Notes: generated by a model from the sequence alone, not told the origin. 64,000 nucleotides of DNA from Pseudomonadota bacterium (GCA_021848825.1 JAJZTQ010000002.1:5129-69128); one strand, 5' to 3'. Positions 4,224 through 64,000 are shown, counted from the first letter of the stretch. Translations and numbers: made by a program.

Positions 4224-4227
4224 GGAA

Positions 4228-4446: not shown

Positions 4447-4461
4447 TTCAAAACTCCTTGG

Positions 4462-14260: not shown

Positions 14261-14270
14261 GATGGCTTCC

Positions 14271-14729: not shown

Positions 14730-14733
14730 TGAA

Positions 14734-18335: not shown

Positions 18336-18378
18336 GCTGATGCTACCTTGACCTTAGTGGCAACAGGAAAACTGAAAA

Positions 18379-26008: not shown

Positions 26009-26244
26009 AGAAGCTGATCTTCCTGATGCTTTTCCTTGTTCAATCCCAATCCTTCGCCGATACGCTGGGGCGGCTTTTCTTCACGAAGCAGGAAAGGGAG
26101 GCGATGGACAGACGGAGCAGGAATCCTGGAAAGGCGACCGAAGCGAATCCGGAGGCGAGCGGAACCGTCCAGAGGAAAGACGGCGGAGAGACAGTCTGGA
26201 TCAATGGCGTTCCCCATCATGTGGAACGGGACAAGAAAAAATGA
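26005..26244 (+). CDS. small secreted protein of unknown function
   Basis: 79 aa from the internal ATG 26005 of the track ORF (ATGA overlap on both sides). Signal peptide MKKLIFLMLFLVQSQSFA, then LGRLFFTKQEREAMD. Confidence 0.5.
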   Translation: MKKLIFLMLFLVQSQSFADTLGRLFFTKQEREAMDRRSRNPGKATEANPEASGTVQRKDGGETVWINGVPHHVERDKKK

Positions 26245-27434: not shown

Positions 27435-28120
27435 AAAAAGGATTCACGCTGGTCGAAATCGCAGTCGTTCTGGCAATAATTGCCCTTCTCGTCGGCGGCA
27501 TGCTGATCCCGATTTCCGCCCAGATAGAAGAGCAGAAGATCATGGATACGCAGGATTCCATCGATCTGGTCAAGGAGGCGTTGATCGGATATGCGGTCGT
27601 CAACAAGCATCTTCCCTGCCCCGACAAGACTGTGCCAACAGGCGCCGGTACTGCGAACGACGGTCTCGAGGATGCGGCAGCAAGCGGTTCCTGCGTAAGT
27701 CAGGAGGGCAATATTCCCTGGGTCACTTTGGGCGTCTCGGGGCTGGATGCATGGGGTAACCGCATCCATTACAGCGTGACACCCGCTTTTTCGAATTCTC
27801 TCGCCAAATTCACGCTCCACTCGACCGGTACATTGCGGATATGTCAGACGTCGACCTGCGCAAACGTAGTGGCCAATGAAATTCCCGCCGTCGTCCTTTC
27901 CTATGGAAAGAATGGCTTCGGCGCGATCAACAGTGCCGGGCACGCCAATGTTTTACCGACGAGCGCAGACGAATTGGCCAATACCGACGGGAACCTCGAT
28001 TTTGTAAGCCGTACCGGCACTCCTTCCGCAGCCGCTTCGGGGCAGTTCGACGACATCGTCGACTGGGTCTCCCCCTATGTGCTCTTCGATCGAATGGTTT
28101 CGGCAGGGGTCTTGCCTTGA
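27431..28120 (+). CDS. prepilin-type minor pilin/pseudopilin
   Basis: MKKG/FTLVEIAVVLAIIALLVGG N-methylation motif. Start trimmed to ATG 27431 (ATGA overlap). Confidence 0.8.
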   Translation: MKKGFTLVEIAVVLAIIALLVGGMLIPISAQIEEQKIMDTQDSIDLVKEALIGYAVVNKHLPCPDKTVPTGAGTANDGLEDAAASGSCVSQEGNIPWVTLGVSGLDAWGNRIHYSVTPAFSNSLAKFTLHSTGTLRICQTSTCANVVANEIPAVVLSYGKNGFGAINSAGHANVLPTSADELANTDGNLDFVSRTGTPSAAASGQFDDIVDWVSPYVLFDRMVSAGVLP

Positions 28121-28872
28121 AGACGATCGCAAGATATACGCTGCTCGAAGCGCTCAGGAACAAAATGCTCTGGCTGATTCTGCCGATTCTTCTCCTCGGC
28201 CTTTCCTTTTCGCATTTTCTTCAGCGGACAGCCATCACCGAGAGCAGCGAGATCCAGGCGGGCTCCCTTGCCTTGATGGAGAGGACAGGGGCGGTGTTCG
28301 TCATGGTTTCCTTTGTCGTGGGGGGCATCTCAAGGGAGTACCAGGAAAAGGGGATGGAATTCTTCCTCGCCTTGCCGATGGGCAGGACCAGCTATCTTTT
28401 CGGCAAGCTTCTGGGATATGCATGCTGTTCGCTCCTGCTTGCCATTCTTTTCACCTTGCCGTTCTTCCTGAGCAACTCGCCTGTCTCGGCTTCGATCTGG
28501 GGCATTTCGCTCTTTCTCGAACTCGCTTTGATGAGTTGTGTGAGCCTCTTTTTCTCGATATCGCTGACCCAGATGCCCCTGGCGCTCGCGGCGGTTTCAG
28601 GCTTCTACCTGCTTTCACGCTCGATGGGGGCGATCATGCTGATCATGAAGGGCCCTCTCGCGGTTCACGGATTCTTGGAGGATATCGCCGACAGGGCGAT
28701 TTCGCTTGTCTCCTTCGTTCTCCCTTCGCTCGACGATTTCACCAGGACCGGATGGATCCTCTATCAGGAAACCAAATGGCAGGTTCTCCTGCCTGTTCTC
28801 GTCCAGACTGCGATTTACCTCTTGCTGATCTCCGCTGCAGCGCTCTTCGACTTCGAGAGGAGGGAAATCTGA
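28117..28872 (+). CDS. ABC-2 family (NosY/GldF-like) permease
   Basis: TTG start in a TTGA overlap with the pilin stop. IARYTLLEALRNKMLW and REYQEKGMEFFLALPMGRTSYLFGKLLG motifs typical of ABC-2 permeases. Six hydrophobic helices. Confidence 0.65.
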   Translation: MKTIARYTLLEALRNKMLWLILPILLLGLSFSHFLQRTAITESSEIQAGSLALMERTGAVFVMVSFVVGGISREYQEKGMEFFLALPMGRTSYLFGKLLGYACCSLLLAILFTLPFFLSNSPVSASIWGISLFLELALMSCVSLFFSISLTQMPLALAAVSGFYLLSRSMGAIMLIMKGPLAVHGFLEDIADRAISLVSFVLPSLDDFTRTGWILYQETKWQVLLPVLVQTAIYLLLISAAALFDFERREI

Positions 28873-28886
28873 ACGCGTCATGGCAG

Positions 28887-29567
28887 GTGAAATGGGTCTT
28901 GATGATTTCGCTGATTCTTCAGATTGTCTGGCACGCCTTTCGGTCAGACGAAAGTCCTGCTGCGCAAAAGCTTCATGATCCGCCTTCGCCCACGGATCTG
29001 AGGCTCGCGTCTTTCGGCGAATCCGAGATGGCCTCGAGATTCATGATGCTCTATCTGCAGTCATTCGACAGCCAGCCCGGAATCGTCATCCCTTACCGGG
29101 ATCTGGACTATCGGCGGGTCAAGAAATGGCTGAAGACGAGCCTGATCCTCGATGAAAGGGATCAATATCCGCTCTTTGCCGCAGCCGGCCTCTATCTCGG
29201 CGTGGAAGACGACAGCAGGAAAAGGATCATGCTCGATTTCATCTACAGGGCATTCGTGAAAAACCCGGAAGAAAGATGGCAATGGCTGGCAAGGGGGATA
29301 TGGGTTGCAAAATACCAGCTTCACGATCTTCCCCTTGCCCTTCGATATGCGGAGGCGCTCGCCGGACGCAGGACCTCGAAGATGCCCGACTGGGTGAGCG
29401 AAATGCAGGTTTTCATCCTGAATGACATGAACAAAATCGATAGTGAAAGGATATTGATTGGCGCCCTTCTTGCCAATGGCAAGATACTAGACCAGAACGA
29501 GAAGTATCTTCTCGAGAGGGAGCTCGCCAGGATAGGGAGGCAAAAAAAATCCGGCGTGCTATGGTGA
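28887..29567 (+). CDS. membrane-anchored hypothetical protein
   Basis: 3' half of the 496-aa track ORF. Start placed at GTG 28887 (ATG 28902 is an alternative), giving an N-terminal anchor KWVLMISLILQIVW. No family recognised. Confidence 0.45.
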   Translation: MKWVLMISLILQIVWHAFRSDESPAAQKLHDPPSPTDLRLASFGESEMASRFMMLYLQSFDSQPGIVIPYRDLDYRRVKKWLKTSLILDERDQYPLFAAAGLYLGVEDDSRKRIMLDFIYRAFVKNPEERWQWLARGIWVAKYQLHDLPLALRYAEALAGRRTSKMPDWVSEMQVFILNDMNKIDSERILIGALLANGKILDQNEKYLLERELARIGRQKKSGVLW

Positions 29568-29596
29568 ATCAAACAAACCTTTTGGAGCGGCAAATC

Positions 29597-30244
29597 ATGG
29601 AAAAAGAAACCGGTTTCACATTGGTCGAGATAGCCATCGTGCTGGTCATCATAGGGCTGATTCTTGCTGCGGTATTGAAGGGGCAGGAAATGATCACCCA
29701 GGGCAAGATCAAGGGCATCATCAACGATTTCAACGCAGTCTTGACCGCCTACAATGGCTACCAGGACAGGTACAAGGCGATTCCGGGGGATGATCCCAAT
29801 TCGGGGGCGAGGTGGACCACGCTGGGGGTAAGCGGAAACGGCAATGGCACGGTCGACGGAGAATACAACGACGCAACTGGCGGAACTTCGGAAGCGACCT
29901 ATTTCTGGGCAGATCTGAAATTCGCCAATTTCTTTCCGGGATTGACCGACACTGCAGCCCACGCCGAGGCCCAGCCTTCGAATTCAGTCGGAGGGATCAT
30001 AGGGGTTCAGAACAATGCGCTGGGGATGTCGGGGCTCTCGATCTGCATGTCGGCGGTGGTATACAAGATTGCGCAATCCGTGGACACGCAGATCGACGAC
30101 GGCAATGCGATGACAGGTTCGGTTCGCGCAACCGTTCAGACCGCTGGCGCCACGCTCGCCCAGTTGCCTGACCTGACGGGAGGGGCTCCGGCAGCCAATT
30201 ACGTTGACGGCAGCACCTACGTCATATGCCGCTCCATTCCCTGA
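29597..30244 (+). CDS. type IV pilin (candidate major subunit, copy 1)
   Basis: MEKETG/FTLVEIAIVLVIIGLILAAVLKGQEMITQGKIK prepilin motif. C-terminal Cys pair (SICMS...VICRS). Start trimmed to ATG 29597. Confidence 0.85.
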   Translation: MEKETGFTLVEIAIVLVIIGLILAAVLKGQEMITQGKIKGIINDFNAVLTAYNGYQDRYKAIPGDDPNSGARWTTLGVSGNGNGTVDGEYNDATGGTSEATYFWADLKFANFFPGLTDTAAHAEAQPSNSVGGIIGVQNNALGMSGLSICMSAVVYKIAQSVDTQIDDGNAMTGSVRATVQTAGATLAQLPDLTGGAPAANYVDGSTYVICRSIP

Positions 30245-32583: not shown

Positions 32584-33966
32584 GTGAAAAAATTGTTCCT
32601 GACCTTTCTGCTGCTCTTCCTGAGTGCCCCTGCCTGGGGGCAGCCGCTTGAGCGCCCTGCGGCCATGGCCCCGCTGGTTGTCAGCGACTGGTCTTCCTTC
32701 GAGGACCTGCTTCGTCATGCGAAGTCTGTCGGCATCACAGCGATCAGCACCGATGTCTGGTGGGGCAAGGTGGAGGGGGCAGGGGAGCAGAAATTCGACT
32801 GGCGCTACTACGACGAGGTGAGCCGCGCCATCATGAATGCTGGGCTGAAATGGGTGCCGATCATGTCATTCCACCAGTGCGGCGGCAATGTCGGCGACGA
32901 TTGCGACATCCCCATTCCCGCCTGGATCTGGTGCCGGCTCGACTGCAAGGATCCGGACAGGCTGAAGTACAGGAGCGAAAACGGAAACGAGTCGAGCGAG
33001 GTGATCGCGCTCTGGGCGGACGATCTGGCGCGCAAAGAGTATATGGAATTCATCACCGCTTTTCGCGACCACTTCCGAAATCTGGCGGGAGAGATCGCGG
33101 AAATCAATATCGGCACAGGCCCGAGCGGGGAGCTGCGCTATCCTTCCTACAACAACCATGACCACTGGACCTACCCGGGCCGCGGTTTCCTCCAGGCATA
33201 CAGCGAACCGGCAAAGGATGATTTCCGCCGCTTCGTGCGCGACAAATACCAGACGCTGGAGCGGGTCAACCAGGCATGGCACACGAGTCTTACGGACTGG
33301 AGCGAGGTGCTTCCTCCCTCCAATGCCGACGGATTTTTCAGCAGGCAGGATGATCTGAAAATCCAGTACGGCAAGGACTTCACCGACTGGTACAACGGCG
33401 CGCTGGTGAAGCATGGCCGCTTCATGATCAATCTCGCCCGGGAGGCTCTCGGAGACGCTTTCAAGGGCGTCCCGATCGGCATCAAGATTCCGGGCGTACA
33501 CTGGCAGATGAATTCCCCTGCCATGCCCCGCGCTGCCGAAGTGACCGCTGGCCTCATCCCCACAAGCATCGATATCGCGAGCGAAGAAACGGCGCACGGC
33601 TACGCCCCCATCCTCGACATGGTGAAGCAGGCATCGAGCCATGGTCACCCGCTTGTCCTGCATTTCACCTGCCTCGAGATGGACGACCAGCCGAATGCGC
33701 CGGACTATTCCCTGGCGAAGGACCTGGTTTTCTGGATAGCAAAGGGCGCACAGCGGACAGGCGTCACGGTCATGGGTGAAAACGCCCTGAGCAGCGGGGT
33801 CACAAGCGACCATGGCTGGGACAACATCGACAACGCCATCCGCTGGAGCAGCTACGTCGGCTTCACCGCCTTGCGCCTGAAGGATCTCACTGCCAACGAT
33901 GACCTCGGCTTCCAGCGCTACAGGCGCCTGATCGACGAATTCAAACCGCAAGGAGCAATGCCATGA
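32584..33966 (+). CDS. beta-amylase, glycoside hydrolase family 14, catalytic domain only
   Basis: Signal peptide MKKLFLTFLLLFLSAPAWG. GH14 signatures DVWWGKVE, MSFHQCGGNVGDDCDIPIPAW, catalytic-Glu contexts GPSGELRYPSY and VMGENAL. Confidence 0.85.
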   Translation: MKKLFLTFLLLFLSAPAWGQPLERPAAMAPLVVSDWSSFEDLLRHAKSVGITAISTDVWWGKVEGAGEQKFDWRYYDEVSRAIMNAGLKWVPIMSFHQCGGNVGDDCDIPIPAWIWCRLDCKDPDRLKYRSENGNESSEVIALWADDLARKEYMEFITAFRDHFRNLAGEIAEINIGTGPSGELRYPSYNNHDHWTYPGRGFLQAYSEPAKDDFRRFVRDKYQTLERVNQAWHTSLTDWSEVLPPSNADGFFSRQDDLKIQYGKDFTDWYNGALVKHGRFMINLAREALGDAFKGVPIGIKIPGVHWQMNSPAMPRAAEVTAGLIPTSIDIASEETAHGYAPILDMVKQASSHGHPLVLHFTCLEMDDQPNAPDYSLAKDLVFWIAKGAQRTGVTVMGENALSSGVTSDHGWDNIDNAIRWSSYVGFTALRLKDLTANDDLGFQRYRRLIDEFKPQGAMP

Positions 33967-52631: not shown

Positions 52632-52697
52632 GATTACCATATATTGCGGCAGATGGTGCATAATTGTCCCGATTGTCCGTATGATTCGAAATATGAC

Positions 52698-53507
52698 ATG
52701 GATTCAAGCCGTGTACTGGAAATTGCCAGCAAATCCGATGCAGGTCTTGTGCGTTCGCACAACGAGGACAGCATCGGTTCGGATGCTTCAATCGGGCTTG
52801 CAGTCCTGGCTGATGGCATGGGCGGATACAATGCCGGGGAGGTGGCGAGCGGCATCGCCGTTTCCATGATCACATCCGGCATGAAGGCCGCGCTTTCCGG
52901 CCGGGGACAACCGGATGAGGCCAGCGGGGAAAGCATGTTGCGCGAACAGGTTGCGGCTGCAAACAGCGCGATATTCAATGCCGCAAGGCAGAGAAAGGAA
53001 TGCGAAGGCATGGGGACGACCCTCGTCGCCGCGCTTTTCTTCGATGGGAAGGTGAGCGTCGCCCATCTCGGGGACTCCCGCATGTACAGACTGCGCGGCG
53101 GGAAGCTGGAGATCATGACGCACGACCATTCCCTGCTGCAGGAGCAGCTTGACAGCGGCATGCTGACAAAGGAAGAGGCCAGGTTCTCCCAGTACAGGAA
53201 CATCGTGACGAGGGCGCTGGGAATCGAACAGGATGTGGAGATAGAGATCAGGAGCTTCGATGTGCAGCCCGACGACCTCTACCTGCTTTGTTCAGACGGG
53301 CTGAATGACATGCTCGAAGACGAGGAAATAGGGCTTGTCCTGGATACGCTGAGATCGAATCTGAAGCTGGCGGCCGAGAAGCTCGTGGCTCTCGCAAATG
53401 AAAATGGCGGGCGCGACAACATTTCGGTTATCCTCGTGAAAGTGAAGCAGGGAATCGGGGTCCAGCGCGGACTGATGTCGAGGCTCATGTCATCATTCAG
53501 GAAATAA
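52698..53507 (+). CDS. PP2C-family Ser/Thr protein phosphatase
   Basis: KSDAGLVRSHNEDS, LADGMGGYNAGEVAS, HLGDSRMYR, LCSDGLNDML, NGGRDNISVILV. Start set at ATG 52698; the upstream ATG 52644 cannot be excluded. Confidence 0.85.
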   Translation: MDSSRVLEIASKSDAGLVRSHNEDSIGSDASIGLAVLADGMGGYNAGEVASGIAVSMITSGMKAALSGRGQPDEASGESMLREQVAAANSAIFNAARQRKECEGMGTTLVAALFFDGKVSVAHLGDSRMYRLRGGKLEIMTHDHSLLQEQLDSGMLTKEEARFSQYRNIVTRALGIEQDVEIEIRSFDVQPDDLYLLCSDGLNDMLEDEEIGLVLDTLRSNLKLAAEKLVALANENGGRDNISVILVKVKQGIGVQRGLMSRLMSSFRK

Positions 53508-53521
53508 AGGGGCAGTTTATC

Positions 53522-54235
53522 ATGTCGAAATTGATTCTCAGCCTTGACGGGAAGGAGCTCAAGGAAGTCCCGCTCGACAAGGAGCGCATCCTGATAGGGA
53601 GAAAATCGCAGAACGACATCCAGATCGACGATGTCGCCGTGAGCGGCGAGCACGCAGTCGTCATCACGATTCTCAACGATTCCTTCCTTGAGGACATGGG
53701 GAGCACGAACGGCACCAGAGTCAATGGCACCAGCGTCAAGAAATACTTCCTGCAGAACCATGATGTGATAGGGATAGGGAAATACAAGCTCACCTACATC
53801 CACGAGGCGGTCCCGCGTCCCGCCATTCACGAGCCGGCCCAGCGCGCTGTGCCTGACCTCGAGAAGACGGTCATGCTGCGCCCCTCCAGCGTATCGGCGA
53901 TGCTGCCTTCCTCCGTTTCCGCGCCGGTGGAAAAGTCGGAGGAGAAGGCGCCCCCTCCTCCGCCCAAGCCATCGTCAGGCGCTGCGGTGCAGCTTCTCAC
54001 CGGACCCAGTGCCGGACGGGAGCTCGATCTCGTCAAGAACCTGACCACATTGGGCAAGCCCGGCGTACAGGTTGCGGTCATCACGAGAAGGCCGCAGGGC
54101 TTCTTCATCACGCATGTCGACGGGGAAAAATCGCCTGTGCTCAATGGCAAGCCGATAGGATTGCAGCCCCATCCCCTCAAGGACCATGATATCGTCGAGC
54201 TGCTCGGCATCAAGATGGAATTTTTTCTGAAATAG
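53522..54235 (+). CDS. FHA-domain protein (canonical N-terminal FHA, Pro-rich linker, degenerate C-terminal FHA-like domain)
   Basis: N-domain IGRKSQNDIQIDDVAVSGEHAVV...GSTNGTRVNG. Linker EKAPPPPPKPS. C-domain TTLGKPGVQVAVI...VLNGKPIG...HDIVELLGIKMEF lacks the R/SxxH phosphothreonine-contact residues. Confidence 0.8.
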   Translation: MSKLILSLDGKELKEVPLDKERILIGRKSQNDIQIDDVAVSGEHAVVITILNDSFLEDMGSTNGTRVNGTSVKKYFLQNHDVIGIGKYKLTYIHEAVPRPAIHEPAQRAVPDLEKTVMLRPSSVSAMLPSSVSAPVEKSEEKAPPPPPKPSSGAAVQLLTGPSAGRELDLVKNLTTLGKPGVQVAVITRRPQGFFITHVDGEKSPVLNGKPIGLQPHPLKDHDIVELLGIKMEFFLK

Positions 54236-54243
54236 GCAAAACA

Positions 54244-55008
54244 GTGAAGCTCAGGGTTCTCGGGTGCAGCGGCGGGATAGGAGGAGAATTGCAGACCACT
54301 TCCTTTCTTCTGGATGATGACATACTGATCGATGCGGGAACCGGGACCGGAAGGCTGTCCCTGGAAGCGATGCGCAACATAGATCATATCTTCCTCACCC
54401 ACTCCCATCTCGATCATGTCGCATTCATTCCGCTGCTTGTCGACAGCGTGGGCTATCTCAGGCAGAAGCCGATAACGGTCCATGCGATTCCTGAAACCAT
54501 AGCGGCATTGAAGCAGCATCTTTTCAACTGGGTGATATGGCCCGATTTCAGCGTGATCCCGAACACGGAATCTCCCTATCTGGTTTTCGAGGAGATTTCG
54601 GTGGGGGAAACGGTCAGGCTGGGGGATCGGAAAATCACGGCCTTGCCTGCAGTCCATACCGTACCTGCAGTCGGCTATCATCTGGAAAGCGGAAAGGGAA
54701 GTCTCGTTTTCAGCGGCGATACCACCACCAACGATGCATTCTGGGAACGGGTGAATGAAATCGACGATCTCAGATACCTGATCATCGAGACCGCCTTTTC
54801 AAACGGCGAAAGGGAAATCGCGATCCTTTCGAAGCATCTTTGTCCCAGCCTTTTGGGCGAAGAACTGGCTAAACTTGAAAAGGATGTGCCTGTCTACATC
54901 ACGCATCTCAAGCCTGGGGAATTGTCGCTGATCATGGCGGAGATCGGCGAGGGCATATCGGGGGTCAGAACAGAAATGCTTGTAAACGAACAGATATTCG
55001 AAATATGA
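54244..55008 (+). CDS. class II-like 3',5'-cyclic-nucleotide phosphodiesterase (MBL fold)
   Basis: MKLRVLGCSGGIGG...TSFLLDDDILIDAGTG...IFLTHSHLDHVAFIPLL matches the HxHLDH class II PDE signature region. GTG start. Confidence 0.7.
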   Translation: MKLRVLGCSGGIGGELQTTSFLLDDDILIDAGTGTGRLSLEAMRNIDHIFLTHSHLDHVAFIPLLVDSVGYLRQKPITVHAIPETIAALKQHLFNWVIWPDFSVIPNTESPYLVFEEISVGETVRLGDRKITALPAVHTVPAVGYHLESGKGSLVFSGDTTTNDAFWERVNEIDDLRYLIIETAFSNGEREIAILSKHLCPSLLGEELAKLEKDVPVYITHLKPGELSLIMAEIGEGISGVRTEMLVNEQIFEI

Positions 55009-55009
55009 C

Positions 55010-57388
55010 ATGTCCAAACTGACAGACATATCGAGCGGCAGCATCCCTGTGCCGGGGGAAAGCCTTGCCGATGTCAGCATCAAGCTGAATTTCACCAAGG
55101 CCCTCCAGTCCCTGACCAACAGGATTCATGCCACGGGAAATTTCGACGAGATCATCTTCGATCTCGGCAAGGACATCTGCACCCTTTTCAACGCGGACAG
55201 GATCACGATCTACGTCGTGAGCGAAGACAAGACATCCATCGTCTCGAAAATCAAGACAGGGCTTTCCTCGTTCAAGGACTTGAAGCTGCCGATTTCCGAT
55301 CAAAGCATCGCGGGCTATGTCGCGAGGCACAAGAAGATGGTGAACGTCAAGGATGTGTACGACGAAAAGGAGCTGCAGTCCTACAGTCCCCAGCTTCACT
55401 TCATGAGGGAGGTGGACAAGCGCACGGGCTACCGGACCAAGCAGATGCTCGTCGCGCCGATAGTCGATGCGGAAAACGAGCTCGTGGGCGTGCTTCAGAT
55501 CATCAACAACAAGTTCGGCCTGCCATTTCAGCCGATGACGGAAGAGGGGGTGGTCGAACTCGCCAAGACCCTCGCCATCGCATTCAAGCAGAGACAGCGT
55601 CCCCATCAGCTCGTCAGGACGCGTTTCGACGTGCTGATAGCGGAAGGCGCGATTTCTGCAGTCGAGTTCGATCTTGCGTCCAGGTCCGCGAGAAGGCGGG
55701 ACGTGCCGCTGGAAGACGTGCTGCTGGACGAATTCCAGGTGAAGCCGGCTGCATTGGGCAAGTCGCTTGCTCACTTCTTCGACGTGGAATACGAGCCTTT
55801 CAGGTCTGACAGGACAAGACCCGCCGATCTCTTGAAGAACATCAAGCGGGATTATGTCGAAGCGAATCAATGGCTGCCTGTCGAGGAGGCCAAGGAAGGC
55901 ATCGTCATCATCAGCCCGGACCCGGAGAGGGCGCAGGGTTCCCGCATTCCCCACAATGTCTTTCCGAAGAGAAAGCTCGTTTTCAGGGTCTGTTCCCATC
56001 GGGAATTCGCGCAGACGGTCAACCTTTTTTATGCCGAAGAAGGCGGTTCTTCCATAGGAGATCTGCTTTCTTCCATGGATGACGAATCGGAGAGCGAGGA
56101 CATTTCCGACGAGCTTTCTGCTGCAGCGGACAACGAACTCGTCAAGCTCGTCAACAAGATCATCACGGATGCGCACAGGATGGGGGCATCCGACATCCAT
56201 ATCGAACCTTCTCCTGGAAAGGGAAAGACGCTGGTCAGGTTCCGCAAGGACGGAACGCTGCTGCCTTATGTCGAAGTCCCCGCCTCCTACAGAAACGCCA
56301 TCGTTGCCCGCGTCAAGATCATGTGCGATCTGGATATCTCCGAAAAGAGAAGGCCGCAGGACGGCAAGATCCTTTTCAGGAAATTCGCGCCGCTCAACAT
56401 CGAATTGCGTGTCGCGACCATCCCCTCGGCGGGAGGGGTGGAAGACATCGTGATGAGGATTCTGGCATCGGGCGACCCCATTCCCCTTGAAAAGATAGGC
56501 TTCTCTCAAAAGGCGTTCGATACGCTGAAATCGATCGTCACGAAGCCTTACGGCCTTTTCCTGGTCTGCGGACCGACAGGTTCGGGAAAGACGACGACGC
56601 TCCACTCGGTGCTCGGATACATCAATACCCCGCAGACCAAGATATGGACTGCCGAGGATCCGGTCGAGATCACCCAGAAGGGGTTGCGGCAGGTTCAGAT
56701 GAATCCCAAGGCCGGCCTCACTTTCGCGACGGCGATGCGCGCCTTTCTCCGCGCCGATCCGGATGTGATCATGGTGGGCGAAATGCGCGACAAGGAGACC
56801 ACATCGGTAGGCATCGAGGCGTCCCTCACCGGGCACCTCGTGATGTCGACGCTTCACACCAACAGCGCACCCGAGAGCATCGTCAGGCTGCTCGACATGG
56901 GCATGGATCCTTTCAATTTCTCCGATGCCATTCTCGGCATACTGGCGCAGAGGCTGATCAAGCGATTGTGCAGGCATTGCAGGAAAGCCTCGGTTGCAAC
57001 GGAACGGGAAATCAGGCAGCTCCTTGCCGAATACTGCGAGGAGCTGAAGCATACTTCGGCCTGGAAGCAGGATTCAGAAGCGGTTCTGAAGAAGATCTAC
57101 GAAGAATGGGCTGGAAGCTACGCGAATGAAAAAGGCGAATTCGTCCTTCATCATCCTGTCGGCTGCCCCGAATGCAGCGGCACGGGATACAGCGGCCGTC
57201 AGGGCATATTCGAACTGCTCAAGGGCACGGACGAGATCAAGCGGCATATCCAGGAAAGGGCGCAGGTTTCAACGCTTTTTGCGACCGCGCTTGACGAAGG
57301 CATGCGCACCCTGAAGCAGGACGGTATAGAAAAGGTGCTTCAGGGCATCACCGACATGCATCAGGTGAGAACGGCCTGCGTCAAATAA
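55010..57388 (+). CDS. GspE/PilB-family secretion ATPase with N-terminal GAF domain
   Basis: 792 aa. GAF-like region approx aa 30-195 (ADRITIYVV...LVAPIVDAENELVGVLQIINN), T2SSE_N-like region, Walker A GPTGSGKTTT, DPDVIMVGEMRD, GHLVMSTLHTN, Zn motif CRHC...CPEC. Confidence 0.85.
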   Translation: MSKLTDISSGSIPVPGESLADVSIKLNFTKALQSLTNRIHATGNFDEIIFDLGKDICTLFNADRITIYVVSEDKTSIVSKIKTGLSSFKDLKLPISDQSIAGYVARHKKMVNVKDVYDEKELQSYSPQLHFMREVDKRTGYRTKQMLVAPIVDAENELVGVLQIINNKFGLPFQPMTEEGVVELAKTLAIAFKQRQRPHQLVRTRFDVLIAEGAISAVEFDLASRSARRRDVPLEDVLLDEFQVKPAALGKSLAHFFDVEYEPFRSDRTRPADLLKNIKRDYVEANQWLPVEEAKEGIVIISPDPERAQGSRIPHNVFPKRKLVFRVCSHREFAQTVNLFYAEEGGSSIGDLLSSMDDESESEDISDELSAAADNELVKLVNKIITDAHRMGASDIHIEPSPGKGKTLVRFRKDGTLLPYVEVPASYRNAIVARVKIMCDLDISEKRRPQDGKILFRKFAPLNIELRVATIPSAGGVEDIVMRILASGDPIPLEKIGFSQKAFDTLKSIVTKPYGLFLVCGPTGSGKTTTLHSVLGYINTPQTKIWTAEDPVEITQKGLRQVQMNPKAGLTFATAMRAFLRADPDVIMVGEMRDKETTSVGIEASLTGHLVMSTLHTNSAPESIVRLLDMGMDPFNFSDAILGILAQRLIKRLCRHCRKASVATEREIRQLLAEYCEELKHTSAWKQDSEAVLKKIYEEWAGSYANEKGEFVLHHPVGCPECSGTGYSGRQGIFELLKGTDEIKRHIQERAQVSTLFATALDEGMRTLKQDGIEKVLQGITDMHQVRTACVK

Positions 57389-57389
57389 T

Positions 57390-59519
57390 TCAGTCCTTCA
57401 TCTCCCTTTTCTTGCGGTAGCTCGACAGCAGCTTGTACGCGATCAGTCCGAGCATGATCAGTATCAGTGCCAGGATGCCGTAGAAAACATAGGGATGGGC
57501 ATAGAGAAAGGAGGATGCGAAAGAGATGTCCCCCTTCTCCCCGGTGGTGTATTTTTTCCCGACGGAGATCGACACCACGTCATAGTTCGGCACATTGAGC
57601 TTGATCAGCGAAACGCCGCCTTTCATCCTCGCCAGTATGTCCGGCTGCAGTAGGGCATCGCCGAGCTTGGCAACGTCGCCGTCGTCCTGCGCCGTCATGA
57701 GCACAACGGACCTGCCTTTCTTGTATGGCGATTCGAATTCCATGACAAGTCCGGTGCCGTTTCCGAGTCCGCTCAGCTGCTTGCTGAATGAAATCGTTGT
57801 TTCGCTGTCCCAGCCCCTGCTGACGGGATAGGGTATGGTGGCGATGCCGTGCAGTTGTACGGGCGCGCGCGCCATGATCGACTCTGGAATGGAGGAGGAT
57901 TTCCCGATGACCAGTATTTCTCCTTCCCAGTTCTTCGGCTCGCTGAAGGAGATTCGGGTTTCGAAGAGGGGGAAACCGTTCTTCTGGGTGATCATTCCTA
58001 TCATGTCGAGCGCCGCGTCGATCGAGGCGTCATCGGGTTTGGGCAGATAGACGATGGTCTTGAACCCGTCAGGCCACCTCGTGAAGGGAAAGCCGTTGAG
58101 CGAGAAGAGTTCGAGCTTGGGCAATTCGACGAAATGCGGCATGGGCGGAAAGAAAAGCGTCGAATTTCCGAAAATCGTCACGAAAAGCCCATCCGTTATG
58201 TCGACATCGCATACCTGGTGCTGGGTATTGAGATAGGGCTTGAATGAAATCGTGTTGGTTCCCGGCTTGAACAGGTAGGTCGGGATATCCATCCTGTAGT
58301 CCTTGATGTAATTGCCATCAGGATTGTTGAGGTGGATATCGCGAAACTCCTTGCCATTCACGTTAATGCTGAGCGAGGAATCCTGGCGCAAGCCTGAACC
58401 GTAGGAAAGGTTCAATATCAGTTTTGCATACTGGTTCTGCCTGATCAGAAAGTCGGGCGGGAGCCTGAAGGTGAGGATAGATGCGGCATCGACAAAACCG
58501 TGGAAGCTGTGGGAATCCATCCCCAGCGTCTTGAAATCATAGACCTTGTCTGAAGAAAGCACTTCTCTTCCGCCATACATCGAAATGTCGGGCATGGTGA
58601 AGCTGTAGGCGCGCAATTCATCCGTTCCCGGATAAGGGAGGGACATGTTGGTGAAGGTTTCGGCAGCGATCTTGATCGCCTTGGCCGTGTCGCCGGACAC
58701 CACAATCAGGGCGTGCTGATCGTCCTCTGCTCCGGCTTCGGGCAAATGGAGAATCTTGATGTAGCCGCCCTGTCCCTCGGGAAGGGTCTTGCCGTATCTG
58801 GCGAGCACCCCGTCTGCAAACCGGGTCGTTCCGATCAACACATTGTCCATCCCCGGCTTGATATCGAGAGAATGCGAGAACTTTACCTGGCGATAATCGA
58901 AATGCCTCGCGATGCCGGATGCGACGATTCCGGCCAGCGTCGTGATTTCGGGGGAAGTGGCATCCATGACCAGGTTGATCGAGGCCTCGGGAACCTGTTT
59001 CGGGTCGAGAATCAGACCGATTGCTTCGGCCAGATGCAGCGGCAGCGGCTTCAGGCTGTAATCGAGCTGGATGGTGGAATCGGTCAGGCTGATGTTTGTC
59101 CAGAGATCCGGGGAACAGATCTGTTCGCACTGGCCGGAGAGATAATGCTGGACGACCTGGAAAGAAACGGTGTTGTATCCTGCCTTCAGGTGGTCAGGGG
59201 GAAGCGGCACATCCACCACGCCTTCCGGCGACTGGGTATTGAGCTTGAATTGCGAGACGGACATGCCATTGAGCTGCACCGCCATCTGGGAGCTGCTTGC
59301 AATCATGTTGTTCGAAGCCATGTAGTGCAGCTTCAGGGTGGCGCCGTGCACATCCCATCTTTCAGGAATGGGAATGGACAAATTCTGAACCGAGCGGATG
59401 CATTTCAGTTCGAGGGTGGGAACCGGCGAGAACTTCTGCAGCGGCAGGGTGAGTGTATCGGCAAATGCTGTCGTGCTCAGGAACAGCATGGCAAGGATCA
59501 GGCTGAATGATTTTGTCAT
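57390..59519 (-). CDS. bcsB: BcsB-like periplasmic subunit of a cellulose-synthase-type complex
   Basis: 709 aa. Signal peptide MTKSFSLILAMLFLSTTAFA, large periplasmic body, single C-terminal TM anchor (FYGILALILIMLGLIAYKLL), directly downstream of bcsA. Family call rests on architecture and context. Confidence 0.7.
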   Translation of the reverse strand: MTKSFSLILAMLFLSTTAFADTLTLPLQKFSPVPTLELKCIRSVQNLSIPIPERWDVHGATLKLHYMASNNMIASSSQMAVQLNGMSVSQFKLNTQSPEGVVDVPLPPDHLKAGYNTVSFQVVQHYLSGQCEQICSPDLWTNISLTDSTIQLDYSLKPLPLHLAEAIGLILDPKQVPEASINLVMDATSPEITTLAGIVASGIARHFDYRQVKFSHSLDIKPGMDNVLIGTTRFADGVLARYGKTLPEGQGGYIKILHLPEAGAEDDQHALIVVSGDTAKAIKIAAETFTNMSLPYPGTDELRAYSFTMPDISMYGGREVLSSDKVYDFKTLGMDSHSFHGFVDAASILTFRLPPDFLIRQNQYAKLILNLSYGSGLRQDSSLSINVNGKEFRDIHLNNPDGNYIKDYRMDIPTYLFKPGTNTISFKPYLNTQHQVCDVDITDGLFVTIFGNSTLFFPPMPHFVELPKLELFSLNGFPFTRWPDGFKTIVYLPKPDDASIDAALDMIGMITQKNGFPLFETRISFSEPKNWEGEILVIGKSSSIPESIMARAPVQLHGIATIPYPVSRGWDSETTISFSKQLSGLGNGTGLVMEFESPYKKGRSVVLMTAQDDGDVAKLGDALLQPDILARMKGGVSLIKLNVPNYDVVSISVGKKYTTGEKGDISFASSFLYAHPYVFYGILALILIMLGLIAYKLLSSYRKKREMKD

Positions 59520-59536
59520 TTTATGGATATTTCTTG

Positions 59537-62224
59537 CTAGATATTGTTTTCGCGTGGTTTGGCAGGTCTTCTGAAAAATATGGGTGATGAGCGTATCAGC
59601 TGCAGGCTGCTTCCGTATACGTATTTGACGATTCTGGGATAAGTCGACGTGTCCGGAATGAATTCAGTGCCGCAAAGAAGCTTGTTGCCGCGCTTCACCG
59701 CCCTTCTTATCCTGCAGTCGAACTGATATTGGGCACCCTCTTTGGTCGTGATGTCGAGCGTCACAGGCTCGCCCCCATGCAATGGCAGGGGCAATTCAAT
59801 CAATATCCCGATGCCGGAGAGCGATATATCCATGATATTGCCTTGGACGCTCGCATTCAGGCTGGGGAAGTAAACCATGGCCCGTCCTTTGCCTTCGATG
59901 CGCTGAAACTTGCGAACTGGCCTCTTTTTCACCAGTTCAAAAATCCTGGCCTGCCCCTGGTAAAAATAATAAACAGTTCTGCTCAGGGTCATCAACAACA
60001 TGTCAAGCAGCAAAGACGAGGTAAGGCACTGTATCAAGAGCCTCCAGAGGAATTTCATGGAGTCTGAAAAGAAAGCGAATCCGCTTACCCAGATTGCCTT
60101 GACGCCCATTTTCGAAAAATGCCAGAGCATGTGGAATGTATCGCGTTTCCTCGCCTTCGCGTTCCAGATTTCCTGCCATCTTTGGCTGTCGCCGAAGACG
60201 TAGCTGATGATTTCTGCAGCAGGCGCGGCCAGGAATTCGCTCCCGCAGACATACCTGCCGCTCATCTTTTCGATGTGCCTGATATTGTTTTCGAAGCGAT
60301 ATTCACGGCCATAGCTGTCCCTGACTTCCAGAATGATCCTGTCCTGCTCCATTGGTAAAATGGACGAATCGATTTCGAAACCTATCCCTGTCCTCGAGAC
60401 GTCGCGGACTTTGCCGACGACCGATTTTCCCAGGCGCTGGAAGCGGACGATCACGTCACCGCTGGACGCTATCCGGTGAAATTGCCGCTCCTGCTTTCTC
60501 TCCCACAGCGCGCCCAGTGAAACCAGGACGATGGAAAGGTTATAAAGCGACCATGCGCCCGTCACTGCGATAACGTCGCGCATGATCGGTGTGGCAAACC
60601 ATTTTATGACTGAAAGAATCAGGGCGGCGACGTTGAAGGCGATGAGCAGGAAAAAAGGCGTTGCAATCGGACTCAGGTATTCCCTTGTGTTGAGTTTTCC
60701 CTTCGGGGTAACCTTGAATGTCGGTTTCCAGGGGTTGGCCACCGCGGAGAGGATGGCCGGAATCAGGAAAAGAGACTGGATCGTCTCGTAGATCTCCGAG
60801 AAGAAAGGGTTCCTCGAGCCGGAATAGAAAAAGTCCATGATCACCGAAATGCTCAGCACGTACGGAAGCGTGAACGAAATGATCTGAAGCCACGAGGCGT
60901 TATAGATGTTGAATCCGAGAATGAGGTAGGCGGCGGGGGCGATGAGGTAGATCACGCGCGCAAAACCGAACAGCCAGAAAAAACTGAAGTTGAAGTAATT
61001 CAGCCTTTGCCAGAAAGAAAGTCCCTTCATCTTCAGCGGGTTGTTGAACTGGGCGAGCTGTATCATGCCTTGCGCCCAGCGCGAGCGCTGGATCACATAG
61101 TCGTCATAGGTTTCCGGAGACAAGCCGCAGACCATCGGCTTGTTGACATAAATGCTCCTGTAGCCGCGCCTGTGCAGATGGAAGGCGGTTTCGACATCTT
61201 CCGTGATGGTGTTGCCGTAGAGTCCGCCTTCCTGTTCGAGATGCTTGCGCCTCAACAGCGCCGCAGATCCGCAAAAGTAGCTGGAATTCCAGAAATCCAT
61301 GGCGGGGTGAAGTTTGCGATAGAACAGGTCGCTTTCGGCATAGGGATTGGCGATGCCTGTCAGGCCCTTTTCGACTGGAGACGGGTTGATGAAAAAATGC
61401 GGCGTCTGAACGAGGAATACTTTCGGATCGACGATGAAATGCCCTACGGTATTCTTCAGGATATCCTTTGTCGGCACATGATCGCAGTCGAGAATCAGCA
61501 CAAGATCGCCCGAAGTGTGCTTCAGCGCATGGTTGATATTGCCGGCCTTCGCTTTCTGATTCGTTTCGCGCGTGATGTATCCGACGCCGAGTTCAGCTGC
61601 GACCTGCCTCAGGCTGCGATGCCTTTCCCATGCGTCCGTTCCGGATTCAGCATGGCTGCGCTTGTTCCGGGTGCTGCCGTCATCCAGGATATAGACATTC
61701 AGCTTGTCTTTCGGATAATCGATCTGGGCTGCCGCAGTGGCGGTAATGCGAACGATTTCTTCGGGTTCGTCATAAGTCGGGATGAGGACATCCACAGTGG
61801 GCAGCAATGCAGCATCTTCAGGCAAGGGAATGATGGGGCGATCGAGAGGCCAGACATTGATGAACATGCCGAGCAGGAGCATGACGAAACCGTATATTTC
61901 GGCAAGGTAGACGAGCATCATCGCTGCGAAATCCAGTGGGCCGGTATAGAAAAGGGTGCCGAATGTCCGCCACTGGATGTAGCGCAACCCCATGAATGTC
62001 ACCAGCAGGATCATGAGCAGGCGCCAGGGCTGCTCCCTTGATTTTTTCCAGAGGTACATCATGAAAATCAGGGCGAAGCCGCCCCATCCGAGCACCATCT
62101 GCCTGGAAAGGTCATAATATTCGTAGGTGAACTGAAGCAGATAGACAAGGGCGGCGATCAATATCGCACCGGTGGCCGCAAGCTGCAAATTGCTGTACTG
62201 TGCACGCACGCCTGTTCGGGTCAT
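59537..62224 (-). CDS. bcsA: BcsA-like processive GT2 beta-glycan synthase with two PilZ modules
   Basis: GT2 motifs DDGS (181-184), DCDH (246-249), TED (341-343), QRSRW (379-383). PilZ 1 RQFHR (580-584) plus DVSRTG (608-613). PilZ 2 RKFQR (771-775) plus DISLSG (799-804). Confidence 0.88.
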   Translation of the reverse strand: MTRTGVRAQYSNLQLAATGAILIAALVYLLQFTYEYYDLSRQMVLGWGGFALIFMMYLWKKSREQPWRLLMILLVTFMGLRYIQWRTFGTLFYTGPLDFAAMMLVYLAEIYGFVMLLLGMFINVWPLDRPIIPLPEDAALLPTVDVLIPTYDEPEEIVRITATAAAQIDYPKDKLNVYILDDGSTRNKRSHAESGTDAWERHRSLRQVAAELGVGYITRETNQKAKAGNINHALKHTSGDLVLILDCDHVPTKDILKNTVGHFIVDPKVFLVQTPHFFINPSPVEKGLTGIANPYAESDLFYRKLHPAMDFWNSSYFCGSAALLRRKHLEQEGGLYGNTITEDVETAFHLHRRGYRSIYVNKPMVCGLSPETYDDYVIQRSRWAQGMIQLAQFNNPLKMKGLSFWQRLNYFNFSFFWLFGFARVIYLIAPAAYLILGFNIYNASWLQIISFTLPYVLSISVIMDFFYSGSRNPFFSEIYETIQSLFLIPAILSAVANPWKPTFKVTPKGKLNTREYLSPIATPFFLLIAFNVAALILSVIKWFATPIMRDVIAVTGAWSLYNLSIVLVSLGALWERKQERQFHRIASSGDVIVRFQRLGKSVVGKVRDVSRTGIGFEIDSSILPMEQDRIILEVRDSYGREYRFENNIRHIEKMSGRYVCGSEFLAAPAAEIISYVFGDSQRWQEIWNAKARKRDTFHMLWHFSKMGVKAIWVSGFAFFSDSMKFLWRLLIQCLTSSLLLDMLLMTLSRTVYYFYQGQARIFELVKKRPVRKFQRIEGKGRAMVYFPSLNASVQGNIMDISLSGIGILIELPLPLHGGEPVTLDITTKEGAQYQFDCRIRRAVKRGNKLLCGTEFIPDTSTYPRIVKYVYGSSLQLIRSSPIFFRRPAKPRENNI

Positions 62225-62225
62225 A

Positions 62226-63032
62226 TCACCTTGCGGATTGTGCAGGGCTGATAGAATCGCTTACGGAGCGCCGGCTGTCCCTCGTCTGTTCCTTGCCGAC
62301 CAAAGCCATGACTGCCGCCGCGATGCCTATGAGCAGCACGGCCATCAGGAAGAATTTCATGCCGAATGATCTTGCAGGGGGAGAACTCTGGGCAGGCTTG
62401 TCGTCCAGGCTCCTGCCCTGCTTGTCGAGCTCTATTTCCTTCGGATTCCAGAATACCTTGTATGCGTTGAACGCATCCTTCTTGCCTTTGAGCGTGATCT
62501 GCTTGATGAACCGGCAATAGTTTTCGCTCTTGTCTGAAAGGCTGTTGTAGGTTTCTTCGGAGATATAGATTTCTCCTGCCGTGGCGGAAGATTCGAAGCG
62601 CGATGCGGTGTTGACGACGTCTCCTGCAATGTCGTTCTTTTCGATGATGCATTTTCCGGTATGCATGCCGATCCGCATCAATACGGGCGTCTTGTATTTT
62701 TTCGACATGTTGAGTCCGTCCATGCCTTGCTGGATGCGCACAGCCGCACGGACCGCATCCTGGGCATTTTCGAAATAGGAGAGCGTGCCGTCCCCGATGG
62801 ACTTGATGAACACCCCGTTGTTTTCCTTGATCGCCGGCAACACGATCTGGTTCTGGTCCTTGATCAGCGTGCGGCTGACCAGGTCACCTTCGGTCTCTGC
62901 TATGGTGGTCGAGCCCTTGAGATCGGTGAATACGACCGTCAGTACCTTGGTGAACTTGTCGTTGAAAACTGCTTCCAGCTTTTCGCGCTCTTCTAGATAC
63001 TTGTCCAGTTCATCCTGTTTAGATTCGTCCAC
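62226..63032 (-). CDS. class III nucleotidyl cyclase (adenylate-type residues) with C-terminal membrane tail
   Basis: GTG start 63032. VVFTDLKGST, IKSIGDGTL, NDIAGDVVNTASRFES. C-terminal TM FFLMAVLLIGIAAAVMALVG. Stop lies 1 nt from the bcsA ATG. Confidence 0.85.
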   Translation of the reverse strand: MDESKQDELDKYLEEREKLEAVFNDKFTKVLTVVFTDLKGSTTIAETEGDLVSRTLIKDQNQIVLPAIKENNGVFIKSIGDGTLSYFENAQDAVRAAVRIQQGMDGLNMSKKYKTPVLMRIGMHTGKCIIEKNDIAGDVVNTASRFESSATAGEIYISEETYNSLSDKSENYCRFIKQITLKGKKDAFNAYKVFWNPKEIELDKQGRSLDDKPAQSSPPARSFGMKFFLMAVLLIGIAAAVMALVGKEQTRDSRRSVSDSISPAQSAR

Positions 63033-63191
63033 GCATTCCCCTATGGCTCACAAAAATGTTCAGCTGCAATTTCTCCTTATTGCAGAACATGCTGTATGAT
63101 CCATTTAACTTGATAAGTCTGCTGGACAGTCTACACAATATGATTTTCGAATTCCATAAGATTAGTTAATGGGATTTCATGGAAACAAAAC

Positions 63192-63217
63192 AATTTGTTA
63201 AAGTAATTTAACAAATT
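63192..63217. promoter_or_regulatory. perfect 11-bp inverted repeat AATTTGTTAAA-gtaa-TTTAACAAATT (candidate operator)
   Basis: Read directly. Sits in the AT-rich 272-bp divergent region between the cyclase-bcsAB operon and the ORF starting at 63305. Confidence 0.45.
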
Positions 63218-63304
63218 CGTCATCTAACATATGGAATCCTTTCTGGAATCTATTCAGCTTGCGTCGGGGTTCACTTTGTAGTGGTGAAACAGATATTAAC
63301 GATA

Positions 63305-64000
63305 ATGAAAAACGATTTTGTCGTTAAATTAAACAATGGGGAAAATCGGCGGGCCGGCTCATGGCGCGTCGCGGCGGCGATGCTTGCCGGATGCCTTTGC
63401 GCACCCCTCTGGCTTCACGCCGAAACCCCTCATGCCGCTCCCTCCGCGGCGCCGGACGAAAGACCGTTGTGGCGTCTGTTGAACGACAAAAAGTACCGGG
63501 AACTCGAGAAAGAAATCGGCAGCATGAAATCGGCTCATCCTGGATGGAAGCCGCCTGGGGTGTTGGTCAGCCTTCTGAAGCAGAACCTGCTCCGAATCGA
63601 AATCGAGGATGCAATCGCGAAAAGGGATGCGGGGAAAATAGCGGAACTGGGGAAAACCGATCCGGAATATTTTTCCTGCGATCATGTCGACTGGGCATGG
63701 GCGCTCGCCGATGCGCGCGCCCTGCTCAAGGAGGCTTCGCTGCTTCAGGGTCTGTACCGGCTCATTCCGGAGTGCAGGGAAGCAGATCGCCTTGCAACGC
63801 TTTACAAGGCCAGGAAATGGCTGAACGATGCTGACTACGGATTGCTGCTCGAGCGGGAGGCAAAAGCGAAGCGGTCGGGGCGGGATGAGGCGGAATTCGA
63901 GCGGCTGCGCTATGAATTTTCAATGGCGCAGCTCAAGACTTCCAATCGGGACTTCAAGACGGAGCTCTCCCGATTGTCGGGCGATATGGCCCGGTATCGG
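63305..64000 (+). CDS. secreted helical-repeat hypothetical protein (3' end outside window)
   Basis: The frame beginning at ATG 63305 is open for all 232 codons to the window end (not in the track, as there is no stop). MKNDFVVKLNNGENRRAGSWRVAAAMLAGCLCAPLWLHA looks like a signal peptide. The rest is Lys/Glu/Leu/Ala-rich and helical (PLWRLLNDKKYRELEKEI...). The track ORF 63361-63834 in another frame is Arg/Gly/Cys-rich and rejected. Confidence 0.5.
   Translation, partial: MKNDFVVKLNNGENRRAGSWRVAAAMLAGCLCAPLWLHAETPHAAPSAAPDERPLWRLLNDKKYRELEKEIGSMKSAHPGWKPPGVLVSLLKQNLLRIEIEDAIAKRDAGKIAELGKTDPEYFSCDHVDWAWALADARALLKEASLLQGLYRLIPECREADRLATLYKARKWLNDADYGLLLEREAKAKRSGRDEAEFERLRYEFSMAQLKTSNRDFKTELSRLSGDMARYR

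Follow-up and report, generated by a model that had tools for sequence, protein, structure and literature searches.

Bacterial cellulose synthesis, the accessory subunits of which have long been catalogued, is a textbook case of a process controlled by cyclic di-GMP (c-di-GMP). The DNA analysed here, a stretch of 64,000 nucleotides (nt) from a Pseudomonadota bacterium (JAJZTQ010000002.1:5129-69128, called the window below), encodes an adenylate-type cyclase of class III immediately in front of bcsA and bcsB, the genes of the cellulose synthase subunits. A first-pass annotation, made from the sequence alone, had described the three genes and suggested that a producer of a cyclic AMP (cAMP)-type signal is wired directly to an exopolysaccharide (EPS) synthase. 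We examined this locus together with its relatives in other genomes.

For the cyclase itself, the best matches in both sequence and structure are two minimal class IIIc enzymes, Ma1120 of Mycobacterium avium and the catalytic domain of Rv1900c of M. tuberculosis. The window cyclase shares with them a short dimerisation arm, the Lys/Asp pair and a single catalytic domain that needs homodimerisation. On the other hand, it is 25-29% identical to them, and its family has two additional elements, a conserved helix at the N-terminus and a membrane anchor at the C-terminus, retains the canonical Asn in the VNTASR motif and sits in bcs clusters.

For a second-messenger enzyme that is stationed at the synthase and signals locally, the precedent is the c-di-GMP module DgcC/PdeK, which works with BcsA/BcsB in E. 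coli (Richter et al. 2020, PMC7397504). DgcC/PdeK are GGDEF/EAL proteins of c-di-GMP metabolism encoded elsewhere, whereas the enzyme here is a class III cyclase, with cAMP as its presumed product, encoded inside the bcs cluster.

Another likeness is found in the BcsE-BcsF-BcsG branch of type II bcs operons. In both cases a regulator with a cyclase fold would be held near BcsA by a single transmembrane (TM) element, and 26 of the related loci contain BcsG. BcsE, which needs the separate protein BcsF, binds c-di-GMP with a degenerate GGDEF/GIL domain, while the cyclase here is a catalytically intact member of PF00211 with a TM helix of its own. The Pfam gene lists of L001 and L085-L087 contain no BcsE or BcsF family and no BcsD, although no dedicated profile search was made for BcsE, BcsD, BcsQ or BcsK; BcsC/BcsS, BcsZ and BcsG are present in the Pfam gene lists of the relatives. 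In the scheme said to go back to Roemling and Galperin in 2015, bcsD reportedly marks type I, bcsE together with bcsG type II, and bcsK without D, E or G type III. We know of no described bcs operon type that includes a PF00211 gene.

The remaining likeness concerns possible receptors. The GAF domains of two proteins encoded near the cyclase, an ATPase and an HD-GYP protein, match best among Anabaena CyaB1/CyaB2 and the GAF-HD-GYP phosphodiesterase PmGH (4MCW), and three related loci encode CyaB1-like GAF-GAF-PAS cyclases. To our knowledge, a link from cAMP to c-di-GMP hydrolysis has been described neither for CyaB1/CyaB2 nor for PmGH; it is our own proposal here.

In the searchable literature, which leaves most subscription journals outside, there is no description of the cyclase-bcs arrangement, and papers on bcs mention adenylate cyclase only in connection with bacterial two-hybrid assays. 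The words cyclase and cAMP are also absent from the text of one systematic survey of EPS/bcs operons. This agrees with the first-pass annotation, which had not recognised the arrangement among described bcs operon types. The catalytic domain is a typical member of class III, as BcsA and BcsB are typical subunits of a cellulose synthase. What is apparently undescribed is that a tail-anchored adenylate cyclase, in many orthologues with a kinase fused to it, is a conserved part of bcs clusters.

Linkage of the cyclase to bcs genes

In total, 450 relatives of the cyclase were found, the top 120 of which are all at least 58% identical, and 407 genomes contained a relative when one genome was scanned for each species. 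The best 80 of these 407 genomes and the window locus (81 loci) were used for the synteny survey, in which the proteins of the window locus were searched with tblastn. The best 80 belong to Gallionellaceae, Nitrosomonadaceae, other Betaproteobacteria, Gammaproteobacteria, Nitrospinota, Nitrospirota, Elusimicrobiota, Deltaproteobacteria and Planctomycetota.

It was found that bcsA or bcsB lies within 10 kb of the cyclase gene in 72 of the 81 loci, and directly adjacent to it in 59. The order cyclase>bcsA>bcsB on the same strand occurs in 30 loci, and about 21 of these have a gap of -4 to +28 nt between cyclase and bcsA, with ATGA overlaps in Elusimicrobia. The cyclase is convergent with bcsB in 29 loci, where typically 0-6 nt separate the two stop codons, and bcsA or bcsB lies elsewhere within 10 kb in 13. 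Isolates of Nitrosospira/Nitrosovibrio are among the carriers of the convergent version. Adjacency to bcs genes spans Betaproteobacteria, Nitrospinota, Nitrospirota and Elusimicrobia, and reaches at least four phyla. Other bcs genes accompany the cyclase as well, namely BcsZ (51 loci), BcsC-like (32), BcsG (26) and BcsS-like genes (21). These counts rest on tblastn; in a single-linkage clustering of raw open reading frames (ORFs), the group called cluster 2 turned out to be the antisense shadow of bcsZ and was discarded.

The cyclase and the synthase have also diverged together. In a mirror-tree comparison over 59 loci, the pairwise distances of the cyclase domain and of the BcsA core are correlated with r=0.83 (Mantel p about 0.001), which is the same value as that between BcsA and BcsB. 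The mean distance is smallest for the cyclase domain (0.36), which is thus better conserved than the BcsA core (0.39) and BcsB (0.51). Because 72 of the 81 loci are linked to bcs and the two proteins co-diverge to this degree, a chance neighbourhood is excluded, and the cyclase-bcs association is far beyond chance. Gene order and co-divergence thus bear out the genetic side of the direct wiring proposed in the first-pass annotation; physical or regulatory contact between cyclase and synthase goes beyond what these data show.

The cyclase protein matches Guanylate_cyc PF00211 with E=1e-18 (68.1 bits against the Pfam cut-off of 21.9). As had been read from the sequence, it keeps both metal aspartates (D37, D81), the Lys/Asp substrate pair (K77, D134) and the Asn/Arg transition-state pair of VNTASR (N141, R145). 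All six residues are invariant in an alignment of 21 homologues of 57-79% identity, and the catalytic and specificity motifs are kept in nearly all 80 orthologues. Among those class III enzymes that have been characterised, a Lys/Asp pair goes with ATP and a pair of Glu/Cys type with GTP. The closest solved structures in a profile search were 3MR7, Ma1120 of M. avium and CyaB of P. aeruginosa, and K77 and D134 align to the Lys and Asp of Ma1120. A Foldseek search with the AlphaFold2 model of the cyclase, whose mean predicted local distance difference test (pLDDT) value is 78.7 and exceeds 90 in the catalytic domain, gave Ma1120 (template-modelling score 0.91, probability 1.00), and also Rv1900c and CyaB.

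The C-terminal membrane tail, which had been called unusual, is shared across the family. Its Kyte-Doolittle hydropathy is 2.88 at amino acids (aa) 227-245, AlphaFold2 models a helix at aa 224-244, and the helix is conserved both in the homologue alignment and in the 80 orthologues; the RSxSxS tail is conserved in the alignment of homologues. Another conserved helix lies at aa 197-204. Judged by these features, the cyclase is a tail-anchored, catalytically complete class III enzyme of the ATP type, and it would be active with cAMP as its product.

In the window, the three genes are ORFs on the same strand whose Pfam families agree with their first description (Table 1), and an identical 268-aa gene call for the cyclase is present in public assemblies. 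The minus strand at the cyclase/bcsA junction reads GCA AGG TGA T ATG ACC, so that the cyclase stop TGA (62228-62226) is followed by a single T (62225) and by the ATG of bcsA (62224-62222), which confirms the reported gap of 1 nt. The reported ribosome site AAGGTG within the cyclase ORF is also present (62232-62227) and overlaps the stop codon, but it is just 2-4 nt from the ATG. Because this spacing is short, we put more weight on termination-reinitiation, which is a stronger argument for co-translation of cyclase and bcsA than the Shine-Dalgarno match. The cyclase is probably translationally coupled with bcsA-bcsB in this genome, and the arrangement suggests expression of the three genes as an operon. 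A consensus scan of positions 56800-64000 for promoter- and terminator-like sites gave counts no higher than those of shuffled controls and no site at the cyclase/bcsA junction; the scan is uninformative either way. All points of the first-pass annotation that could be checked were borne out, and of the outcomes that it had named as refuting (adjacency to bcsA absent from related genomes, catalytic residues substituted, a promoter and terminator between the two genes) none was observed.

Some orthologues have a further domain. About 18 of the 80 are about 575-690 aa long, and in six of the six long orthologues tested a full Hanks-type Ser/Thr kinase domain lies N-terminal to the cyclase. These fusions were seen in Gallionellaceae, Nitrospinota, Betaproteobacteria and Usitatibacter. 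The window cyclase has no kinase domain, and genes for a PP2C phosphatase and an FHA-domain protein lie at 52644-54235. Since a kinase is fused to the cyclase in many orthologues and the PP2C/FHA genes are next door, the cyclase is likely to receive input through Ser/Thr phosphorylation. The position of PP2C/FHA beside bcsB is also less likely to be coincidental because such fusions exist. The fusions would add a third signalling layer.

BcsA, BcsB and c-di-GMP gating

BcsA scores 790 bits against the NCBIfam equivalog-domain model TIGR03030 CelA, for which the cut-off is 699. Pfam matches it to families of glycosyltransferase family 2 (GT2) and to PilZ in two stretches, and the translation contains the GT2 motifs DCDH, TITED, QRSRW and YFCGS. 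The core (aa 64-700) aligns to BcsA of R. sphaeroides (4HG6/4P00) with E=5e-130. The C-terminal extension of about 195 aa (aa ~700-895, window 59537-60140) has one clear hydrophobic segment at aa 729-747 and carries the second PilZ. BcsB matches PF03170 with E=2e-106, and its C-terminal TM helix is at aa 677-695.

Neither a motif scan nor the Pfam gene lists gave a GGDEF or EAL domain in the window, as the first-pass annotation had noted. An SGDEF match in the window is spurious and belongs to the antisense frame of a glycosidase gene, and an EAL gene in the list for L083 comes from a part of that contig where the sequence departs from the window, which has metE there. The absence of GGDEF/EAL from the window does not imply that c-di-GMP is bypassed. 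Among the BcsA proteins linked to the cyclase, all 65 have RxxxR, and 59 of 64 have D/NxSxxG. Furthermore, a GAF-HD-GYP phosphodiesterase with intact HD and HHExxDGxGYP motifs is encoded about 7 kb past the end of the window on the same contig. Because the PilZ motifs are intact and conserved and this phosphodiesterase lies close by, c-di-GMP control of BcsA appears to be retained and not replaced.

BcsA proteins with two PilZ domains occur only in the cyclase>bcsA loci of Gallionellaceae/Nitrosomonadales type. The second PilZ would be periplasmic if the extension has a single TM helix, and the two-PilZ BcsA is a further unexplored variant of the synthase.

Table 1. Features of the window (positions counted from its first nucleotide) and kinase-cyclase fusions of related loci (positions within each locus).
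Feature	Position	Strand	Remarks
Class III adenylate cyclase, tail-anchored, Ma1120/Rv1900c-like	62226..63032	-	268 aa, GTG start; PF00211
Cyclase, N-terminal helix	aa 3-26	-	AlphaFold2
Cyclase, catalytic domain	aa 29-194 (nt 62451-62948)	-	AlphaFold2; followed by disordered linker
Cyclase, C-terminal end	TM helix aa 224-245 (nt 62298-62363)	-	short conserved RSxSxS tail
Cyclase/bcsA junction	62222..62232	-	AAGGTG, TGA, 1 nt, ATG; likely translational coupling
BcsA, UDP-forming cellulose synthase catalytic subunit	59537..62224	-	895 aa; GT2 + PilZ, TIGR03030
BcsA, PilZ1 motifs	60386-60499	-	RQFHR...DVSRTG, aligned to R. sphaeroides motifs
BcsA, PilZ2 motifs	59813-59914	-	RKFQR...DISLSG, in C-terminal extension
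BcsB, periplasmic cellulose synthase subunit	57390..59519	-	709 aa; signal peptide + C-terminal TM anchor; PF03170
Cyclase-bcsAB / bcsC-like intergenic region	63033..63304		AT-rich, divergent; presumed shared promoter region
bcsC-like outer-membrane/TPR gene, 5' part	63305..64000	+	791 aa in full; divergent from cyclase, runs off window
GAF-MshEN-T2SSE (PilB/GspE-type) ATPase	55010..57388	+	convergent with bcsB; candidate cAMP receptor; lineage-specific
Metallo-beta-lactamase (MBL)-fold hydrolase, class II cAMP phosphodiesterase/Apyc1-like	54244..55008	+	public gene call starts 54289
FHA-domain protein	53522-54235	+	second in operon convergent with bcsB
PP2C phosphatase	52644-53507	+	heads operon convergent with bcsB
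Kinase-cyclase fusion, L008	8010-9797		
Kinase-cyclase fusion, L014	9038-10795		
Kinase-cyclase fusion, L033	6724-8688		
Kinase-cyclase fusion, L038	8804-10861		
Kinase-cyclase fusion, L061	8885-10771		
Kinase-cyclase fusion, L077	1354-3081		

A possible cAMP layer over cellulose synthesis

We read the protein as a competent, homodimeric, membrane-tethered adenylate cyclase that is a conserved accessory of one family of bcs clusters, with cAMP as a second control layer over c-di-GMP-gated synthesis, and we give this reading a probability of roughly 0.6. The cyclase would homodimerise at the inner membrane, where its C-terminal helix tethers it. It would be made together with BcsA and BcsB, through coupling in this genome and from a separately transcribed convergent gene in other lineages, and cAMP would be produced at the membrane beside the synthase. 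BcsA would stay gated by c-di-GMP through PilZ, with cAMP acting on top of it. Input to the cyclase would probably come via the N-terminal helix or via a kinase and Ser/Thr phosphorylation, and a hydrolase resembling class II phosphodiesterases would reset the cAMP signal.

The preferred route for reading the signal would be through receptors with GAF domains of the cyclic nucleoside monophosphate (cNMP) type or with cNMP-binding domains, and the proteins of this locus with such domains are candidates. The main one is the GAF-HD-GYP phosphodiesterase, through which cAMP might alter local c-di-GMP turnover and, in turn, the activity of BcsA. We find this route the most attractive, since a change in cAMP would thereby become a change in local c-di-GMP turnover. 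In the HD-GYP protein, the GAF domain matches GAF-A of PDE5 best (E=1e-23) and then CyaB2. An orthologue adjoins bcsA in loci of Nitrosospira type, and in one Elusimicrobia locus a homologue stands immediately before the cyclase on the same strand.

Other candidates are the GAF-PilB-type ATPase, a cNMP-SpoIIE-HATPase/STAS partner switch and a BrkB-cNMP protein. The ATPase GAF (55010-55660) has the cAMP-bound GAF of CyaB2 as its best PDB match (1YKD, E=1e-27). The stretch beyond the window end (L001 1097-9728) holds the bcsC-like gene, two STAS genes, an HATPase_c_2-cNMP_binding-SpoIIE fusion, a BrkB/YihY-cNMP_binding fusion and the GAF-HD-GYP gene (1097-2743). The first of these fusions is a partner-switching module with a cyclic-nucleotide sensor, and the BrkB-cNMP fusion recurs beside the cyclase-bcs genes in the Nitrospinales loci L041 and L043. 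As for the reset, the MBL-fold hydrolase matches PDEase_II PF02112 with 54 bits against a cut-off of 23.7, with partial coverage and below the NCBIfam cut-off, and matches yeast PDE1 (4OJV) with E=1e-7; it is a tentative cAMP-degrading partner.

Several observations weigh against a cAMP layer of this kind. The cyclase is convergent with bcsB in 29 of the 81 loci, so co-transcription with bcsA is not general; for the same reason we regard it as one solution and not as the defining feature of the cyclase-bcs link. Nine loci have no bcsA or bcsB. In 5-6 of these a contig end lies beside the cyclase, and 3-4 lack bcs genes with full flanks, namely L056, L068, L076 (with about 4 kb on one side) and L071 of Kuenenia type, where the only match to bcs is a weak one at the edge. 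The operon of PP2C, FHA, phosphodiesterase-like and GAF-ATPase genes (52644-57388) is lineage-specific and was not conserved in the 80 other cyclase loci by tblastn. HD-GYP proteins occur in only about 13 loci, with varied sensor domains, and cNMP-binding proteins in only 4 of the 81 loci by jackhmmer; no receptor is conserved across the loci. The ligand specificity of a GAF domain is not readable from its best PDB matches, and one of the GAF domains here is nearest to a cyclic GMP (cGMP)-binding domain. Finally, a search for CRP sites (TGTGA-N6-TCACA, up to 2 mismatches) gave fewer matches than shuffled sequences and none in 63033-63304. Simple autoregulation by cAMP-CRP is therefore unsupported, there being no CRP-type site in the promoter region.

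A more specific version of the cAMP layer would make the cyclase a physical subunit of BcsAB, whose local cAMP pool acts through GAF-HD-GYP or another Bcs site on c-di-GMP-gated secretion, with Ser/Thr-kinase input, in a module widespread among environmental bacteria. An exopolysaccharide secretion system would then contain a relay of its own from cAMP to c-di-GMP. We hold this version only tentatively and consider it clearly less probable than the general one. If the cAMP layer is real, a second messenger would be added to cellulose synthesis, as input or output, and the locus would be a concrete case of cross-talk between cAMP and c-di-GMP and of local cAMP signalling in bacteria. The carriers include nitrifiers, iron oxidisers, Nitrospinota, Nitrospirota and Elusimicrobia. 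They drive biofilm formation in groundwater, sediments and wastewater, and the module may matter for aggregation there.

The signal might also flow in reverse, which we regard as unlikely but as the most serious alternative. The cyclase would then be an output device in which the TM helix and a short periplasmic tail, or a contact with BcsA/BcsB, sense synthase activity, periplasmic polymer or contact with a surface, and cAMP would report to global regulators (pili, partner-switching, transcription) and not control cellulose. Such a role would suit the conserved membrane anchor and RSxSxS tail, although the tail has just about 20 residues and is poorly modelled. It would also suit the lack of a bcs-specific cAMP receptor conserved in the loci, the pilus/type II secretion cluster within the window, and the fact that the nearby cNMP/GAF proteins are a pilus-type ATPase and a partner switch and not Bcs parts. 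Nevertheless, the N-terminal kinase fusions suggest a cytoplasmic input, as is usual for class III cyclases, and the recurrent HD-GYP neighbours fit a feedback onto c-di-GMP.

It is improbable that the cyclase makes cGMP, or both nucleotides, with the neighbouring GAF domains as cGMP sensors. The ATP-type pair Lys77/Asp134 is invariant, the GAF of the ATPase is nearest to cAMP-bound CyaB2, and the nearby hydrolase resembles class II cAMP phosphodiesterases. These points outweigh, in our view, the resemblance of the HD-GYP protein's GAF to the cGMP-specific PDE5 GAF-A and the fact that Ma1120, the closest structural relative, was crystallised with GTP as well as ATP according to the entry titles.

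We find it very hard to accept the protein as a non-catalytic subunit of the Bcs complex, that is, a nucleotide-binding scaffold comparable to the degenerate GGDEF of BcsE tethered by BcsF. All its catalytic residues are invariant across phyla, which is unexpected for a pseudo-enzyme. The tether, the tight coupling to bcsA and the co-divergence with BcsA do suggest a stoichiometric partner, and BcsG, which depends on BcsE/BcsF in E. coli, accompanies the cyclase in many loci as given above; scaffolding could, however, coexist with catalysis. The last alternative, a Pycsar-like anti-phage cyclase or a chance neighbour without relation to cellulose, is effectively refuted by the synteny survey (72 of 81 loci linked to bcs, r=0.83), since the PycC model matches (E=1e-11, PADLOC) are weaker than the generic PF00211 match and the Apyc1-like Pfam label on the nearby hydrolase is weak as well, while there is no effector gene, the neighbours are bcs genes, and the specificity residues are of the purine type where cCMP/cUMP would be expected of PycC.

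Intergenic regions and other genes of the loci

The full bcsC-like protein, taken from L001, matches BCSC_C with E=9e-49. In the intergenic region between its gene and the cyclase, a perfect palindrome of 11+11 nt, AATTTGTTAAA-N4-TTTAACAAATT, lies at 63192-63217. It is unique in the window, with 0 expected in shuffles, and was not found in the more distant cyclase loci; we consider it a candidate operator. At the other end of the three genes, the stops of bcsB on the minus strand and of the GAF ATPase on the plus strand are 1 nt apart (57386-57392). The two convergent transcripts should overlap, because the gap has no room for intergenic terminators.

Some features of the related loci deserve mention. 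L086, from a Paucimonas-like metagenome-assembled genome, has two bcsB genes (3888-6191 and 13717-15789), one in a cyclase-bcsA-bcsB unit and the other with bcsZ-bcsC on the opposite strand, and a PAS-GAF-GGDEF-EAL protein is encoded nearby. An ORF of 321 aa stands between bcsA and bcsB in loci of Elusimicrobia/Nitrospirae type (L029, L036, L037, L046, L050, L053, L055, L062, L064 and L079) and is also found in L056. Its match to DHHA1 is weak (E=6e-4, below the cut-off), and it may be a phosphoesterase. An unannotated, repeat-containing ORF of 269 aa, outer-membrane-like, occurs in 14 loci. The CyaB1-like genes mentioned above (771-789 aa) are no more than 10 kb away from the tail-anchored cyclase and bcs genes in three betaproteobacterial loci, at 1685-4000 in L003, 1621-3990 in L004 and 16584-18899 in L008. 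As the CyaB1-like gene stands beside the tail-anchored one, these loci encode two different class III cyclases.

Within the window, a pilus cluster similar to MSHA/type II secretion systems lies at about 17130-30000. It contains an AAA ATPase, a secretin, a TPR protein, a second MshEN-T2SSE ATPase, T2SSF, several ORFs without annotation and N-methyl pseudopilins, and it is followed by a GH14-like glycosidase gene at 32584-33966.

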